From a virus (Duplodnaviria; Heunggongvirae; Uroviricota; Caudoviricetes), in the IMG/VR virus record IMGVR_UViG_2877958089_000002: 31,395 nucleotides of DNA; one strand, 5' to 3'. Below are positions 6,129 to 30,936 of this stretch, piece after piece (the stretch's first letter is position 1; each line of letters opens with the position of its first letter). The position numbers and the translations under genes are program-made. The notes beneath the pieces are model-generated. The model was not told the DNA's origin and searched no databases. It saw only the letters and a list, made by a program, of their open reading frames with translations.

Positions 6129-7124
6129 GTGACCGTGAGAGCACTACTGACCCCTGAAATAGCCCCGCGTATGGGGATCGTATTGTTCAGACCAGGTTCA
6201 GAGCTGATGCCCCTGTTTATGCAGGGGCGTGTACTGCTGGAGCCTGAGCCGGAACGTTATTCATCTTTCGCCAGTGGTGCCGTTCCCGCGGCATCACAAC
6301 CGCTGGCGGATGATCCTGCTGTTCGGGCCGTGTTCCGCAATGAGGCAGTGATCCGTCGTGCTGGTGGCGTGGAATGTCTTGAAAGCTGGTTACTTCGTGA
6401 AAAAGGCTGCCAGTGGCCTCATTCCGACTGGCACAGCGAGAACATGACCACAATGCGACACGCTCCGGGCGCAATCCGTCTGTGCTGGCACTGTGATAAC
6501 CAGCTGCGCGATCAGTTCACGGAACGGCTGGAATCAATGGCAACGGATAACTGTGCCCGCTGGGTGTTGTCTGTTGTGCGTCGGGATCTCGGTTTTGATG
6601 ATAGTCACGTTGTGACAATGCCGGAACTGTGCTGGTGGCTGGTTCGTAATGACCTGGCGGATGCCTTACCGGAAAGTGCAGCCCGTAAGGCACTGAGATT
6701 ACCGAAGCCTGTTGTGTCGTCTGTCACCCGGGAAAGTGACCTTGTGCCTTCGGTTCCTGCCACCAGCATCATCCAGGATAAAGCGAAAAATGTGCTGGCG
6801 CTGAAAGTGGATCCTGAGTCGCCGGAGTCTTTTATGTTACGCCCAAAACGTCGCCGCTGGGTCAATGAAAAGTACACGCGCTGGGTTAAGACACTGCCGT
6901 GTGCATGTTGTGGAAAGCCTGCTGATGATCCCCACCACCTGATAGGCCACGGTCAGGGGGGAATGGGTACAAAAGCGCATGACCTCTTTGTGTTGCCTTT
7001 GTGCAGAAAGCATCACGACGAGCTGCATGCGGATACCGTGGCATTTGAAGATAAGTATGGCTCCCAGCTGGAGCTGATATTTCGTTTTATCGATCGTGCG
7101 CTGGCAACTGGCGTGCTGGCCTGA
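6129..7124 (+). CDS. Prophage protein, DUF968-like, with C-terminal Cys/His (HNH-like) motif
   Basis: GTG start. C-terminal CACCGKP...PHHLIGHG...CRKHHDELH metal-binding motif. Family name recalled from E. coli prophage annotations, not verified. Confidence 0.4.
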   Translation: MTVRALLTPEIAPRMGIVLFRPGSELMPLFMQGRVLLEPEPERYSSFASGAVPAASQPLADDPAVRAVFRNEAVIRRAGGVECLESWLLREKGCQWPHSDWHSENMTTMRHAPGAIRLCWHCDNQLRDQFTERLESMATDNCARWVLSVVRRDLGFDDSHVVTMPELCWWLVRNDLADALPESAARKALRLPKPVVSSVTRESDLVPSVPATSIIQDKAKNVLALKVDPESPESFMLRPKRRRWVNEKYTRWVKTLPCACCGKPADDPHHLIGHGQGGMGTKAHDLFVLPLCRKHHDELHADTVAFEDKYGSQLELIFRFIDRALATGVLA

Positions 7125-7141
7125 TTTTGTGGAGAAAGTTG

Positions 7142-7507
7142 ATGCGTGATATTCAGATGGTTCTTGAGCGTTGGGGGGCATGGGCGGCGAGTGACAGTTC
7201 AGGAGTAGACTATTCGCCTATAGCTGCTGGGTTTAAGGGACTTCTTCCCTATACAAGCAAAACACGTCAGGCTTGTTCAGATAGTGATGCATTAATTATT
7301 GAAGGTTGTCTTGCTCGTCTAAAGCAAAAAAGGCCAGACGAACATTCGCTTCTTGTTGCCCATTACCTATACGGTATCTCTAAAAGAAAGCTCGCCAAAG
7401 CTCGTAAAAAGGATGAGAAACTAATACGCATTGAGATACAGATGGCTGAGGGGTTTATTGAAGGCTGTCTCTCAATGCTTGATCTTTGTTTGGAAATGGA
7501 CCAATAG
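7142..7507 (+). CDS. Late-gene antiterminator Q (small Q type, as in DLP12-type prophages)
   Basis: MRDIQMVLERWGAWAA... N-terminus and AEGFIEGCLSMLDLCLEMD C-terminus are typical of small Q antiterminators. Frame opens at TTG 7127; ATG 7142 has a GGAGA Shine-Dalgarno 6 nt upstream. Confidence 0.75.
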   Translation: MRDIQMVLERWGAWAASDSSGVDYSPIAAGFKGLLPYTSKTRQACSDSDALIIEGCLARLKQKRPDEHSLLVAHYLYGISKRKLAKARKKDEKLIRIEIQMAEGFIEGCLSMLDLCLEMDQ

Positions 7508-7518
7508 ACTACTAGAAT
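7490..7518 (+). promoter_or_regulatory. Candidate late promoter (pR'-like) overlapping the 3' end of Q
   Basis: TTGGAA (7490-7495), 17-bp spacer, TAGAAT (7513-7518), followed by a hairpin (AACTGCCG...CGGCAGTT, ~7522-7552). Placement mimics lambda pR'. Hexamers read by eye. Confidence 0.3.
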
Positions 7519-7530
7519 AGCAACTGCCGC

Positions 7531-7953
7531 TCAGCTTTGCGGATCGGCAGTTTCTGATGGTGTAATGTTACGCGCAGATGTTTCAAGTATAGATTCCCTT
7601 CCGATTGATACCAAAATTTCGATTGTTCTTGCTTTAGCCTGCATCAATGTTGATTTTATTTCAGGACTTAAGTGGTCAGATCGTAACTGCTTCTCAATCT
7701 CAGCCAAATCACGCTTGCATTTTGCTCTTTTGGCTGCGTCTTCTGGAGATTCGAAACCATGCCTCGAAATGAACCAATTCATGACGTAAGTTAAAGTTGC
7801 CGCAACACCCGGTACTAATGCGTAGGCTACAGTTCGCCACACGCTATTAGGGTCGGTTAAAATCGCGCTAACAAGAACACTTAAAATTGCTCCCCAACCA
7901 CCAGTTGAAAGGGTAGCTTTTCCTGTGCTTAGACCTTTAGTTTGAGAATTCAT
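7531..7953 (-). CDS. Small membrane protein (two predicted TM helices plus charged helical C-terminal tail); third gene of the antisense cassette
   Basis: 140-aa product. Hydrophobic segments GGWGAILSVLVSAIL and WRTVAYALVPGVAATLTYVMNWFI, then a K/R/E-rich helical tail. Start overlaps the upstream gene's stop. AT-rich. Confidence 0.6.
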   Translation of the reverse strand: MNSQTKGLSTGKATLSTGGWGAILSVLVSAILTDPNSVWRTVAYALVPGVAATLTYVMNWFISRHGFESPEDAAKRAKCKRDLAEIEKQLRSDHLSPEIKSTLMQAKARTIEILVSIGRESILETSARNITPSETADPQS

Positions 7954-8219
7954 TTTCGTTTTGAATTCTCCGCAATTGCCTCATCAATGAGGGTTGTTAG
8001 CATTTTTCCCTTTTTACTTGGAACTTTTATTACTAGCGTTTTGGTCACTCCGGAATCTTCATCGTGATATCGGAATTCGAAGACTTTTGTAGGGAATAGT
8101 CGACGCCAAAGCAAGGCTGACGCTGAATAGCAAAAACGACTAAAGGCAGGGATGATCATTATCACCCCTATCCAGAAGATCAGTTGTGCTATCTGCATGT
8201 TTAGTGTCACTTTTGTCAA
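7950..8219 (-). CDS. Small membrane protein (one N-terminal TM helix); second gene of the antisense cassette
   Basis: 89-aa product. TM segment IAQLIFWIGVIMIIPAF. Overlapping stop/start with both neighbours indicates an operon. Confidence 0.55.
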   Translation of the reverse strand: MTKVTLNMQIAQLIFWIGVIMIIPAFSRFCYSASALLWRRLFPTKVFEFRYHDEDSGVTKTLVIKVPSKKGKMLTTLIDEAIAENSKRK

Positions 8220-9085
8220 GCCTCAGCAGGGCGTTTTCGTTTTACTTTGGTTATAGCATACTTGGTTGTGGCATTTCGCGCAGTGAAAGTTTTTATAGTT
8301 TTTAGCTCAACAACAAACAAATCTTCTTTTGTAAAACTGATGATTCCGTTTTGAACTTGGTGTATAAACAACTGATCTTCAAAGGTAACAGCATGCTCTT
8401 CGCCTAAATAATCGATTCTCCAACCCTTTGTACCCTCGAAGTTGATCTGTACGAATCTAACATTGACTTCTTCTACAGACTCTTCTTTTTCAAGTAGTGT
8501 GCCTCTAGGCAGCGGTTTGATCTCTTCGGTTTCACTTCCTTCAAGACGAACGACTTCTTCGCCTTCATCATTCAGCACCTTAAATACTGCTCCTTGTTTG
8601 CCGTCTAATGGTGCACGAACTACATTCACAAGGGCATCACGGACTTCTGGATCTGTTACTAACTTAGCCACTGAGTCATGGCAAACAATTTCTTCCCCTT
8701 CAAGCTCAAGAACAGATTCTTCTGTTCCTGCCCGTTTTGTTACCGAAATTACTTTCTTGCTGCCCAGTTGGCGGATTAGTGATAATGCTGGAGCTCCAAT
8801 AGTAGCCCCGGCTATCCCTGTTAGGCCAATCACTTTTGCTACGTCGACGGCATGAGGAACAAGCTCCATCATCGTATAGGATACGCCGAGTGATCCCGCT
8901 TCAGCTGGATTAGTAACCATTAACTTAACGGTTTGTTGGCCGTCATTAAGTCTTTTATCAGCTGCTGATATTAAATCTGCCATCGAACCTATGGAAATGC
9001 TTAATGTTTTGGCATCAATTTTATGCTGTGCTAATTCATTATCCTCTGCATCGTAGAAGATCTGAAAAGAAGTTGTTTTAGTCAC
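8216..9085 (-). CDS. Hypothetical protein (289 aa), first gene of the antisense cassette; no recognisable family
   Basis: GTG start, with an in-frame stop 60 nt upstream and no ATG between. Gly-rich hydrophobic segment (GLTGIAGATIGAPALSL) and acidic C-terminal half. AT-rich relative to flanks. Confidence 0.55.
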   Translation of the reverse strand: MTKTTSFQIFYDAEDNELAQHKIDAKTLSISIGSMADLISAADKRLNDGQQTVKLMVTNPAEAGSLGVSYTMMELVPHAVDVAKVIGLTGIAGATIGAPALSLIRQLGSKKVISVTKRAGTEESVLELEGEEIVCHDSVAKLVTDPEVRDALVNVVRAPLDGKQGAVFKVLNDEGEEVVRLEGSETEEIKPLPRGTLLEKEESVEEVNVRFVQINFEGTKGWRIDYLGEEHAVTFEDQLFIHQVQNGIISFTKEDLFVVELKTIKTFTARNATTKYAITKVKRKRPAEA

Positions 9086-9206
9086 TCTTTGCTCGCTATG
9101 TCTTGATTTTTTTCCACAAAATACCTTTTTTTGGTGTAAAAAACATTATCGCGGTCCGCAAAAATTGCGTTACTGTGTTAAGAGTGATTACTTCGTCACA
9201 CAGCTT

Positions 9207-9233
9207 AAACCCGCCGTCGAGCGGGTTTTTTTA
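9207..9233 (+). terminator. Intrinsic terminator, plus strand
   Basis: AAACCCGC-cgtcga-GCGGGTTT stem-loop followed by a 7-T run. Lies between the antisense cassette and the small wHTH gene. Confidence 0.6.
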
Positions 9234-9355
9234 TACCTGTAAACCTGGTGCAGTACGGTAAACACGCTGGTGGTCGTGAATACTGACTTTTTATCTTGCT
9301 GGCTTTTTAGACAAGAGTTATTGGTATGTCATGTTAACCATGAAGGTAAAAAGAC

Positions 9356-9550
9356 ATGCTAAAACAGCAAGATATGACAGAAACGGCGAAAGTTGTTTTT
9401 AATGAATTAAACGGCAAACCGGCAACAGTCGGGGAGATAGCACAAAACACATACCTTTCACGCGAACGCTGTCAGTTAATACTGACCCAGCTGGTTATGG
9501 CGGGGCTGGCAGATTACCAGTTCGGCTGTTACAGACGCCTTCAGCAATGA
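9356..9550 (+). CDS. Small putative DNA-binding protein (64 aa) upstream of the methyltransferase
   Basis: ATG with AAGG about 9 nt upstream. Sequence ATVGEIAQNTYLSRERCQLILTQLVMAGLA suggests a helix-turn-helix. Confidence 0.4.
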   Translation: MLKQQDMTETAKVVFNELNGKPATVGEIAQNTYLSRERCQLILTQLVMAGLADYQFGCYRRLQQ

Positions 9551-9699
9551 AGGGCTTTTAATTTGTGAAAATGGGCGGCTGGTGGGTGTTGGTAGCACCT
9601 GCCAGCCATTCGCTCATGCTTACTGGTCACAAGCGAACCATGGCCCACTGCTTTAGCGCAAAAGCAGAGTGAGCCTACCAGAGTTACGCTTACTGATCC

Positions 9700-10752
9700 A
9701 TGAAAAATACTGTAAAAATAAACAGTGTTGATTTAATCAACGCTGATTGCCTGCATTTTATTCAGTCCCTGCCTGATGACTCCATTGATCTGATTGTTAC
9801 CGATCCGCCGTACTTCAAAGTGAAGCCCAACGGCTGGGACAATCAGTGGAAAGGGGACGAAGATTACCTGAAGTGGCTGGACCACTGTCTGGCCCAGTTC
9901 TGGCGGGTACTGAAACCAGCCGGAAGCCTTTACCTGTTCTGTGGACATCGCCTGGCATCTGATATCGAGATCATGATGCGTGAACGTTTCAACGTTCTTA
10001 ACCATATCATCTGGGCGAAGCCGTCCGGACGATGGAACGGGTGTAATAAAGAAAGCCTGCGGGCATATTTCCCCGCTACAGAGCGCGTTCTGTTTGCTGA
10101 ACATTACCAGGGGCCATATCGCGGCAAAAGTGACGATTATGCGGCAAAAGAAAGGGAACTCAAACAGCACATAATGGCACCGCTGATTTCGTATTTCAGG
10201 GATGCTCGTGCCGAACTGGGTATAACGGCAAAACAGATTGCCGAAGCCACTGGTAAGAAAAATATGGTTTCCCACTGGTTTGGTGCCAGTCAGTGGCAGT
10301 TGCCGAATGAGGCTGACTACCGGAAGTTGCAGGCACTGTTTTCCCGTATAGCGGCAGAGAAATTTCAGGAACAACAACTGGAACAACCACACCACCAGCT
10401 GGTGGCATCTTATGATTCACTGAATCGCAAATATTCTGAATTGCTGGATGAGTTTAAAACTCTCCGGCGCTATTTCTCCGTATCAGTTTCCGTGCCTTAT
10501 ACCGACGTCTGGACGTATAAACCCGTTCAGTTCTACCCGGGTAAACATCCGTGTGAGAAGCCTGCGGATATGCTCCGGCAAATAATCAGTGCCAGTAGTC
10601 GACAAGGCGATCTGGTTGCTGATTTCTTTATGGGATCCGGTTCCACAATAAAAGCGGCAATGGCGCTGGGGCGTCGGGCGTTAGGTGTTGAACTTGAGTC
10701 AGAGCGGTTTAATCAGACGGTGAAAGAGGTAAGTGAACTGGTGGGGAAATAA
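9700..10752 (+). CDS. Orphan DNA methyltransferase (N6-adenine/N4-cytosine MTase family, beta class)
   Basis: DPPY motif (LIVTDPPYF) near the N-terminus and AdoMet-binding motif (FFMGSGST) near the C-terminus. No adjacent restriction endonuclease. Confidence 0.85.
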   Translation: MKNTVKINSVDLINADCLHFIQSLPDDSIDLIVTDPPYFKVKPNGWDNQWKGDEDYLKWLDHCLAQFWRVLKPAGSLYLFCGHRLASDIEIMMRERFNVLNHIIWAKPSGRWNGCNKESLRAYFPATERVLFAEHYQGPYRGKSDDYAAKERELKQHIMAPLISYFRDARAELGITAKQIAEATGKKNMVSHWFGASQWQLPNEADYRKLQALFSRIAAEKFQEQQLEQPHHQLVASYDSLNRKYSELLDEFKTLRRYFSVSVSVPYTDVWTYKPVQFYPGKHPCEKPADMLRQIISASSRQGDLVADFFMGSGSTIKAAMALGRRALGVELESERFNQTVKEVSELVGK

Positions 10753-10759
10753 TTCTGGT

Positions 10760-10782
10760 GGCCACGTTGCGTGGCCTTTTTA
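10760..10782 (+). terminator. Intrinsic terminator between the methyltransferase and the holin
   Basis: GGCCAC-gttgc-GTGGCC hairpin followed by TTTTTATTT, 8 nt after the methyltransferase stop. Coordinates anchored on ORF-track codons. Confidence 0.55.
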
Positions 10783-10828
10783 TTTCCAACACAGCACCCG
10801 CAAATATCGCGAGGTGAGAGATGACGAA

Positions 10829-11164
10829 ATGCCTCATAACCCAAATACCTGGCTGGACTGGCTGGAGTTGTTTCAGAGCTGGTGGCGTGGAGATACGCCG
10901 CTGGGCGCAGTGATTATGTCGATTGTTATGGCTGGTTTGCGTATTGCCTATTTTGGTGGTGGTGGCGGCTGGAAACGAAAAACACTCGAAATTTTGCTCT
11001 GTGGCGCTCTGACGCTGACCTTTGCATCCGCTCTTGAGTATGTCGGATGGCCTAAATCGCTTTCTGTTGCCATTGGTGGTGGGGTGGGGCTGATCGGGGT
11101 CGATGCAATTCGTGGGGCTGCAATGCGAGTAATCGGTAATAAGTTTGGTAGTTCTAAGGAGTAA
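10829..11164 (+). CDS. Holin
   Basis: Directly precedes the R-type endolysin. About 111 aa with hydrophobic segments (LGAVIMSIVMAGLRIAYF, LLCGALTLTFASAL, VAIGGGVGLIGV). ATG at 10829 preceded by GAGGTGAGAG; track ORF starts earlier at GTG 10733 inside the methyltransferase 3' end. Confidence 0.6.
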   Translation: MPHNPNTWLDWLELFQSWWRGDTPLGAVIMSIVMAGLRIAYFGGGGGWKRKTLEILLCGALTLTFASALEYVGWPKSLSVAIGGGVGLIGVDAIRGAAMRVIGNKFGSSKE

Positions 11165-30665: not shown

Positions 30666-30936
30666 ATTTTACTTCATCTAATTCATAGTTAGCCGGGCGG
30701 GATGCGTCAATGTCTTTATTTCTATTAATATGATAAATATCAAACAATGTTTAATGTCATTATGGCGAATGCTTCTATTCTATTTTTTTGCCGGGTGATA
30801 TTTTTCATTTCTGCTGGATGAGCGTCGTCGCCAGAAGGCCACGTGAGCACAGGATAAGAGAACGAAAAATCAGCAGTCTATGCAGCGACAAATATTGATA
30901 GCCTGAATCAGTATTGATCTGCTGGCAAGAACAGAC

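Follow-up and report, generated by a model that had tools for sequence, protein, structure and literature searches.

The rexAB genes of phage lambda are positioned after the repressor; they pair a soluble protein of some 280-290 amino acids (aa) with a single small inner-membrane protein, RexB, which has four transmembrane (TM) helices. Other accessory genes of lambdoid prophages are known as morons. Lambda bor and lom, HK97 gp15 and the stx genes downstream of Q are examples; bor is AT-rich, horizontally acquired and antisense. The standard lambdoid layout is Q, pR', qut, tR', and the classical co-directional moron site lies downstream of tR', where the stx genes are found. With these systems we here compare a cassette of three minus-strand genes in a 31,395-nucleotide stretch of Caudoviricetes DNA (IMG/VR record IMGVR_UViG_2877958089_000002), which as a whole is called the window and whose numbering is used throughout. 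The genes are named A (289 aa), B (89 aa) and C (140 aa). As judged by sequence comparison, they form a conserved, horizontally mobile three-gene accessory operon that temperate phages carry as a "moron". That they encode a lysogen-expressed, membrane-associated phage-exclusion module is a conjecture to which we give an even chance.

The family of protein A is already catalogued, and a defence role has been proposed for it as a candidate under the name PDC-S42. The PDC systems were nominated by "guilt-by-embedding", in a screen for genes that lie within BREX, DISARM and type I restriction-modification loci (Payne et al., bioRxiv 10.1101/2024.01.29.577857). PDC-S42 is filed as a single-gene system (the "S" class), whereas A, a full-length member of the family, is here part of a three-gene unit, and B and C are found in no catalogue. 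New are the obligate arrangement of three genes, two of which code for uncatalogued membrane partners; the exact place of the cargo, between the Q stop codon and the presumed late promoter; its occurrence in lambdoid, P2-like and Mu-like phages; and the fact that A is without a solved structural relative.

A conserved three-gene unit

The cassette and its genes are the following:

8216..9085, minus strand: gene A, a 289-aa open reading frame (ORF) with a GTG start, for a soluble multi-domain protein of the PDC-S42 / NF053583 "LAPAL" / phrog_3243 family
7950..8219, minus strand: gene B, longest ORF 89 aa with a TTG start, for a small single-pass membrane protein
7531..7953, minus strand: gene C, a 140-aa ORF with an ATG start, for a protein of two hydrophobic helices and a charged two-helix C-terminal tail
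7508..9135, no strand: the whole cargo cassette, from the Q stop codon to a conserved block with the putative late promoter, delimited by homology breakpoints and GC content

The ORF listing has the three genes on the minus strand exactly where the first-pass annotation had placed them, antisense to Q and the lysis genes. All neighbours of the cassette, namely KilA-N, DUF968/HNH, Q, a 64-aa ORF, a DNA methylase, holin and lysozyme, are on the plus strand. The genes had also been described as overlapping. This is true of B and C, which share 4 nucleotides (nt; ATGA), the start of C overlapping the stop codon of B; A and B overlap only if B starts at its TTG. The likely start of B is GTG 8210 (86 aa) or ATG 8198 (82 aa), which are preferred because of the comparison of homologues and a GAGG 10 nt upstream. 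The AT-richness that had been noticed is real: the GC content is 0.42 in the cassette, as compared to 0.516 in the left flank, 0.486 in the right flank and 0.524 in the window, and the GC content at third codon positions of the cassette is 0.32-0.40. Rfam and tRNA scans revealed nothing within or near the cassette.

Gene B is easily overlooked. In the RefSeq record examined, the locus of which is identical, the Prokaryotic Genome Annotation Pipeline (PGAP) annotates A and C and leaves B as a gap between these two coding sequences. Several loci from metagenomes and genomes likewise lack a call for B, yet the translation of B is conserved at every trio locus, including those without a called gene at this place. 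The dN/dS ratios, which are approximate since dS is saturated, amount to 0.02-0.11 for A, 0.07-0.18 for B and about 0.28 for C; by this measure all three genes are under purifying selection, and because B is subject to it, B is to be considered a real gene missed by annotation.

The linkage of the three genes was studied by reading the genomic contexts of about 90 loci, with HMMs (hidden Markov models) built for B and C. In a first count by means of these models, 83 of 84 loci have B and C immediately behind A and in the same orientation; in the remaining one, from Providencia, A is frameshifted and B and C are intact. In Providencia stuartii NCTC11800 (locus L018, 7962-8847) a frameshift splits A into pieces of 183 aa and 128 aa, B and C being undamaged, and this copy is possibly pseudogenised. 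After removal of redundancy, A falls into 11 lineages at 50% identity, and ten of them have the trio in the order A-B-C. In one of these ten, B is beyond the reach of the HMM; a gene of 80 aa as called, or 95 aa as longest ORF, with an N-terminal TM helix takes the same place. The trio loci span A identities from 100% down to about 20-27% and are found in lambdoid, P2-like and Mu-like prophages. Across them B measures about 80 aa and C about 111-157 aa, C always being downstream of B. A scan of genome contigs, for which the search patterns were narrow, yielded 5 loci only. The family of A itself is large. A profile search of 1.84 billion representatives yielded 1884 matches at E <= 1e-3 and 702 at E <= 1e-10, each being the representative of a cluster at 50% identity; further homologues came from a word-indexed search. 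Nearly all of the best 150 homologues listed have a length of 280-310 aa.

That the three ORFs are chance products or decaying remnants without any functional unit has a probability close to nil. The gap left by PGAP in place of B and the failure to identify a promoter would fit such a view. Against it stand dN/dS ratios far below 1 for all three genes with synonymous sites saturated, a gene order kept in 11 lineages (10 of the 11 with the trio) and in three phage types, and the number of A representatives with their nearly uniform length. The conservation data rule it out. The genes, their fixed order and the purifying selection are established.

The insertion site and the genomic contexts

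The window stems from a lambdoid prophage of Escherichia coli. Its positions 7100-9700 are 100% identical to several complete E. coli chromosomes; at least 80% of this segment is carried by only 31 of 5426 complete E. coli genomes. Strain 120899 (NZ_CP025916) is an example of a natural lysogen with the identical cassette. None of 50,697 GenBank phage records covers at least 80% of it, and a tblastn search of the same records with A gave no match. In phage 1720a-02 the site is empty, and the conserved block follows directly upon the Q stop codon. The homology of the window to the phages 1720a-02, cdtI and PhiR40_1 ends at about 7480-7500 and resumes at 9136-9176 (at 9136 for 1720a-02). Other antisense cargo is found at the same gap: a DUF6731 protein and a 147-aa protein in cdtI (locus L002, 1929-3317), and a 148-aa protein in PhiR40_1 (locus L021, 1693-2139). 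None of these cargo proteins is represented in PADLOC. The cassette is accessory because the site is empty in one relative and filled differently in two others, because so few E. coli genomes carry it, and because it is AT-rich. According to these alignments, it occupies a slot of interchangeable content that is bounded by the Q stop codon and the late promoter; antisense accessory genes seem to be exchanged at this junction quite generally.

Presence in some and absence from other related phages, together with a deviant base composition (0.42 versus 0.49-0.52), are what one finds with morons, and the cassette shares with the lambdoid morons mentioned above the deviant GC content, the patchy presence and an orientation that allows expression independent of the lytic operons. 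It differs in being a three-gene operon instead of a single gene, with its own promoter and terminator only putative here, and in its site. The first-pass annotation had assigned the slot to the classical lambdoid moron position. This has to be corrected: the cassette lies where the Q stop codon adjoins the late-promoter/terminator block, upstream of the presumed late promoter and not downstream of tR'. The features that flank it or border on its genes are these:

7127..7507, plus strand: the antiterminator gene Q, convergent with the cassette (Pfam Phage_antitermQ, 3.8e-53)
9136..9238, plus strand: a conserved block downstream of the cassette, with a GCGGTCCGC palindrome, GTGTTAAGAGTGRT and an intrinsic terminator
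9086..9135, minus strand: an AT-rich leader upstream of A, specific to the cassette; the presumed place of the promoter, unless this overlaps the next block
7522..7552, minus strand: a hairpin spanning the C stop codon, a weak candidate for the cassette terminator

The block at 9136-9238 with its palindrome and GTGTTAAGAGTGRT is kept in all Q-linked loci, whichever cargo they contain. A terminator scan detected its terminator (9207-9228 plus a T-run), which the SfV and Ayreon records annotate too. On the basis of the usual lambdoid layout, we infer that the block is the Q-dependent late promoter/qut/tR' region, and the cassette would then sit upstream of the late promoter and converge on Q. 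Upstream of A, only a weakly conserved TAnnnT element is seen across loci. The hairpin at the end of C has a minimum free energy of -19.3 kcal/mol over a 71-nt stretch (z = -2.5 by RNA folding) and is without a classic T-run; the scan for consensus terminators did not flag it.

Some observations on the surroundings may be added. At the end of Q, a promoter-like site (7490-7518, plus strand; TTGGAA, 17-nt spacer, TAGAAT) is directed antisense into the cassette; such sites occur at chance level in the region (6 found, 4.3 expected), and this one is absent from the empty-site phage. The 64-aa ORF at 9356-9550 (plus strand), just downstream of the putative tR', matches phrog_331 (6e-35) and, below cutoff, winged-helix families (TrmB/MarR). 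Many lambdoid phages keep it between terminator and methylase; in the phiP27 record it is described as a TrmB-family regulator. The longest holin ORF (10733-11164, plus strand; 143 aa, GTG start) and the end of the methylase gene overlap, and of this ORF only residues 35-137 are covered by the Pfam holin match; probably, the true start is internal and the 143-aa ORF is over-extended. In the distal prophage, a full-length Rfam match to the small RNA family C0299 is found at 30838-30916 (plus strand; 112.5 bits, gathering score 40).

The enterobacterial relatives of at least 53% identity all occupy the same Q-adjacent slot (Klebsiella, Citrobacter, Enterobacter, Tatumella and others). Each enterobacterial trio locus has a convergent Q some 700 base pairs past the A stop, and in all Klebsiella and E. 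coli loci the cassette is antisense to the late operon. Elsewhere the placements differ. In P2-like contigs of Pseudomonas the trio converges on the tail gene D, and at 7 loci a CI-type repressor gene (Pfam 9e-16) precedes it. The Mu-like prophages of marine Gammaproteobacteria, with A proteins about 20-25% identical, have it behind the repressor and co-directional with it, just ahead of holin or endolysin, or between Mu F/G and the protease within the head cluster. It follows the tail-tube gene in Providencia and is located between primase and methylase in Xenorhabdus. Judged by these contexts, the trio is a mobile accessory module in variable slots of several types of temperate phages, often beside the immunity gene or further cargo of the defence type; its accessory and mobile status, like the repressor- and defence-type genes in its neighbourhood, is an established fact.

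Some of these placements would suit a function in the phage's own life cycle, be it as a virion or morphogenesis component or as a regulator of lysis timing at the membrane. The NCBIfam name of the A family, which contains the words "putative phage structural protein", points in this direction, as do the positions in the Mu-like head cluster and behind the Providencia tail-tube gene; the several loci immediately upstream of holin or endolysin and the closeness of the window's cassette to the lysis cassette would fit the lysis variant. We nevertheless consider such a function very unlikely. The position of the trio varies with the type of phage; the trio is dispensable, since close relatives have an empty site or other cargo; it is antisense to the late operon here and in all other E. 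coli and Klebsiella loci; tblastn detected no homologue in the sequenced phages; and there is no Pfam match to a holin, spanin or structural protein. The head and tail placements probably explain how the NCBI label came about, and in the light of the genomic contexts the label itself appears doubtful.

Protein A and its membrane partners

In the first-pass annotation no family had been recognised for any of the three proteins. For A, this was wrong; for B and C, it still holds. A matches the PADLOC model PDLC05015 of PDC-S42 with an E value of 8.2e-33 (residues 4-287 versus profile positions 3-292 of 302), the NCBIfam family NF053583 with 1e-59 (202 bits versus a cutoff of 60; residues 7-286 versus positions 1-292 of 292) and phrog_3243 with 3e-60. 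All three families are uncharacterised. PHROGs files its entry under "function unknown", while NF053583 bears the name "LAPAL motif-containing putative phage structural protein", which newer RefSeq records use for the identical protein. A has no Pfam match. A literature search retrieved no paper on PDC-S42, the LAPAL motif, DUF7946, phrog_3243, NF053583 or the WP protein accessions, and the supplements examined of the preprint behind the PDC systems (bioRxiv 10.1101/2024.01.29.577857) do not name PDC-S42.

The AlphaFold2 (AF2) model of A is of good quality, with a predicted local distance difference test (pLDDT) of 84 and a predicted template modelling score of 0.75. The N-terminal domain has the order beta-alpha-beta-beta; two alpha+beta domains follow after a Gly-rich hydrophobic linker (residues 86-104) that is poorly ordered. 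A diverse alignment leaves only G64, R149, W222 and D237 invariant apart from the initiator Met, with S65 and G87 close to invariant, and no catalytic motif is evident in it. Foldseek found no match to the model in the Protein Data Bank (PDB) at E <= 1e-3, and searches of the PDB with sequence profiles of A were likewise negative. In BFVD only two matches reach about E 1e-8, a viral DUF6575 protein and, for the N-terminal domain, a 184-aa protein of Mycobacterium phage Pipsqueaks. Distant homologues of A also resemble Pfam DUF7946 over their N-terminal 100-130 residues or so, with scores that remain sub-threshold (15.4 and 19.8 bits upon individual inspection, gathering cutoff 27). The likeness of A to DUF7946 and DUF6575 thus consists of sub-threshold matches of distant homologues and a Foldseek link, and both domains are uncharacterised themselves. 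HepS (Nature 2026) was checked and is unrelated. The possibility that A is an integral membrane protein was rejected: the Gly-rich segment has a Kyte-Doolittle mean of 1.64, and in distant homologues it bears charged residues. From its sequence, A is probably cytoplasmic or peripheral to the membrane.

B has one clear TM segment at residues 8-26 (Kyte-Doolittle mean over 19 residues, 2.01), as the first-pass annotation had it; this N-terminal helix is followed by a small beta-hairpin/helix domain. The description of C as a protein of two TM helices with a charged helical tail stands in part. The tail is there, in the form of two charged helices. The TM character of the two preceding helices, which are moderately hydrophobic (Kyte-Doolittle 1.59 and 1.31), is plausible but only moderately supported. 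AF2 agrees as to secondary structure and predicts helices at 18-31, 38-65, 70-90 and 97-129, with a pLDDT of only 58, which is too poor for a fold search. From the sequence, the basic residues of both membrane proteins lie on the cytoplasmic side. Neither protein matches anything in Pfam, PADLOC (E <= 1), PHROGs or NCBIfam; in particular, no holin, antiholin or spanin family of Pfam, PHROGs or NCBIfam is hit, the actual holin of the window being encoded at 10733-11164. Profile searches of the PDB gave nothing significant, the best match of B being Sac7d-like with an E value of 0.03.

How these three proteins might cooperate can be outlined. A would be a cytoplasmic multi-domain sensor or regulator, B a single-pass inner-membrane protein and C a membrane hairpin with a charged cytoplasmic tail. 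A may dock onto a membrane assembly of B and C, perhaps through its Gly-rich hydrophobic linker. On infection, this assembly would compromise the membrane and thereby cause abortive infection, which is the variant we prefer, or it would block the incoming DNA.

The latter variant is still a form of defence, yet by a different mechanism: B and C, with A as cytoplasmic partner, would keep phage DNA from crossing the inner membrane, and the cell would live through the infection. HK97 gp15, T4 Imm and Sp, and P22 SieA follow this logic of blocking entry, and DNA entry is also the step at which many prophage morons coding for small membrane proteins take effect. The presence of two small inner-membrane proteins whose basic residues face the cytoplasm would be in line with it, and so would the moron status of the trio and its location next to the repressor in P2-like and Mu-like prophages. 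The known blockers, however, are usually single small membrane proteins. A co-conserved soluble partner of some 290 aa and three domains, with a dN/dS of 0.02-0.1, better fits a sensor or regulator, and searches of Pfam, PADLOC, PHROGs, NCBIfam and PDB profiles detected no homology to known Sie proteins. We therefore regard a block at entry as unlikely and prefer abortive infection.

Evidence for and against phage exclusion

The first-pass annotation had pointed to lambda RexAB as a system of similar logic. The resemblance is confined to that logic: a soluble protein of about 280-290 aa, one or more small inner-membrane proteins, carriage by temperate phages and, in the P2-like and Mu-like prophages, a position directly downstream of a repressor gene. 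The differences are evident. There are three genes instead of two; the hydrophobic helices, one plus two, are distributed over B and C, while RexB alone has four; and the cassette of the window adjoins Q and not cI. Repressor adjacency does not occur in the window itself; it is seen, co-directionally, in the P2-like and Mu-like relatives. Homology was rejected, as hhalign gave a profile probability of 0.3% for each of the two pairs compared, the A family with RexA and the C family with RexB, and no similarity in fold was seen.

A defence or superinfection-exclusion function, as had been proposed for the cassette, is the best available guess, and the part of the proposal that saw an accessory, acquired cassette is well founded. 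The arguments for exclusion are all arguments of context: linkage, swappability, orientation, repressor and defence neighbours, and nomination by PADLOC. The nomination is an independent one, as A matches the defence-candidate model over its full length. In the lambdoid setting, the cassette runs against the early as well as the late operons of the phage, as one would expect of genes without a role in lytic growth. Immediate neighbours of distant trios are a TIR-TM gene (PADLOC, 6e-63; locus L098, 7088-7927), a gene for a 2TM_IV-like protein (PADLOC 2TM_IV, 1.7e-8; locus L012, 5122-5988) and a Tad2-like anti-defence gene (Pfam, 2.7e-14; locus L017, 5904-6653), from which it follows that these prophage slots collect defence and anti-defence cargo. 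It is from such context that we infer expression in the lysogen, assembly of the three proteins, an anti-phage phenotype and an effector mechanism.

Morons may, of course, serve the host or the maintenance of the prophage instead. The cassette could be an addiction module of the membrane toxin/antitoxin kind, or a modifier of the envelope or of stress responses similar to lambda bor and lom. Small membrane proteins and a soluble partner could make up a set of toxin and neutraliser, and an AT-rich, horizontally acquired antisense cassette is reminiscent of bor. What speaks against it are weak arguments: the trio is confined to temperate-phage contexts across very different hosts, it has defence and anti-defence genes as neighbours, and neither a signal peptide nor a lipobox nor a known toxin family was detected. 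We take this alternative to be quite unlikely, and return to phage exclusion.

Several findings weigh against exclusion. PDC-S42 is one of 145 PDCs, explicitly described by their authors as untested (bioRxiv 10.1101/2024.01.29.577857). Neither A nor B nor C shows similarity in sequence or fold to validated defence proteins in PADLOC-DB v2, whose validated systems include Kiwa, Zorya, CBASS/Pycsar effectors and the PD-T4, PD-T7 and PD-lambda systems, or in the PDB; the PDC-S42 models are the only ones of PADLOC-DB v2 that match A. The hydrophobic helices of C are borderline as TM segments, and the model is poor. Upstream of A, neither a promoter scan nor the comparison across loci disclosed a sigma-70 consensus match or a convincing promoter. 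In some Mu-like and Providencia prophages the trio is co-directional inside head or tail clusters, which fits late expression. Finally, the eleventh lineage of A is a distant "solo" protein (P0234) without B or C; its gene, on a short metagenome contig rich in GC, is flanked by those of a short-chain dehydrogenase and an MFS-type transporter (locus L096, 1263-2162). At the far edge of the A family, the trio is not universal.

A more far-reaching proposal is that A-B-C represents a membrane-associated anti-phage system of three components that had escaped recognition, has no relationship in sequence or fold to the validated ones and is shuttled as exchangeable cargo by lambdoid, P2-like and Mu-like phages, and in which A senses infection and gates a two-protein membrane effector. 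On the sequences at hand this is conceivable, and we put it forward tentatively, at somewhat less than an even chance.

Whatever the function may be, tools for finding defence systems and PGAP likely under-call the locus, because B is unannotated in the RefSeq record examined and A goes under a doubtful "structural protein" name. The A family ranges over Enterobacterales, Pseudomonas and marine Gammaproteobacteria and over three unrelated backbones of temperate phages. If phage exclusion is its task, the single-gene entry PDC-S42 would turn into a defined three-gene system with two small membrane partners, and the trio would be a prophage-borne exclusion module of the soluble-plus-membrane kind. 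This lambdoid group would then have, where the Q stop codon meets the late promoter, an exchange site for antisense cargo that is worth mining for further systems.

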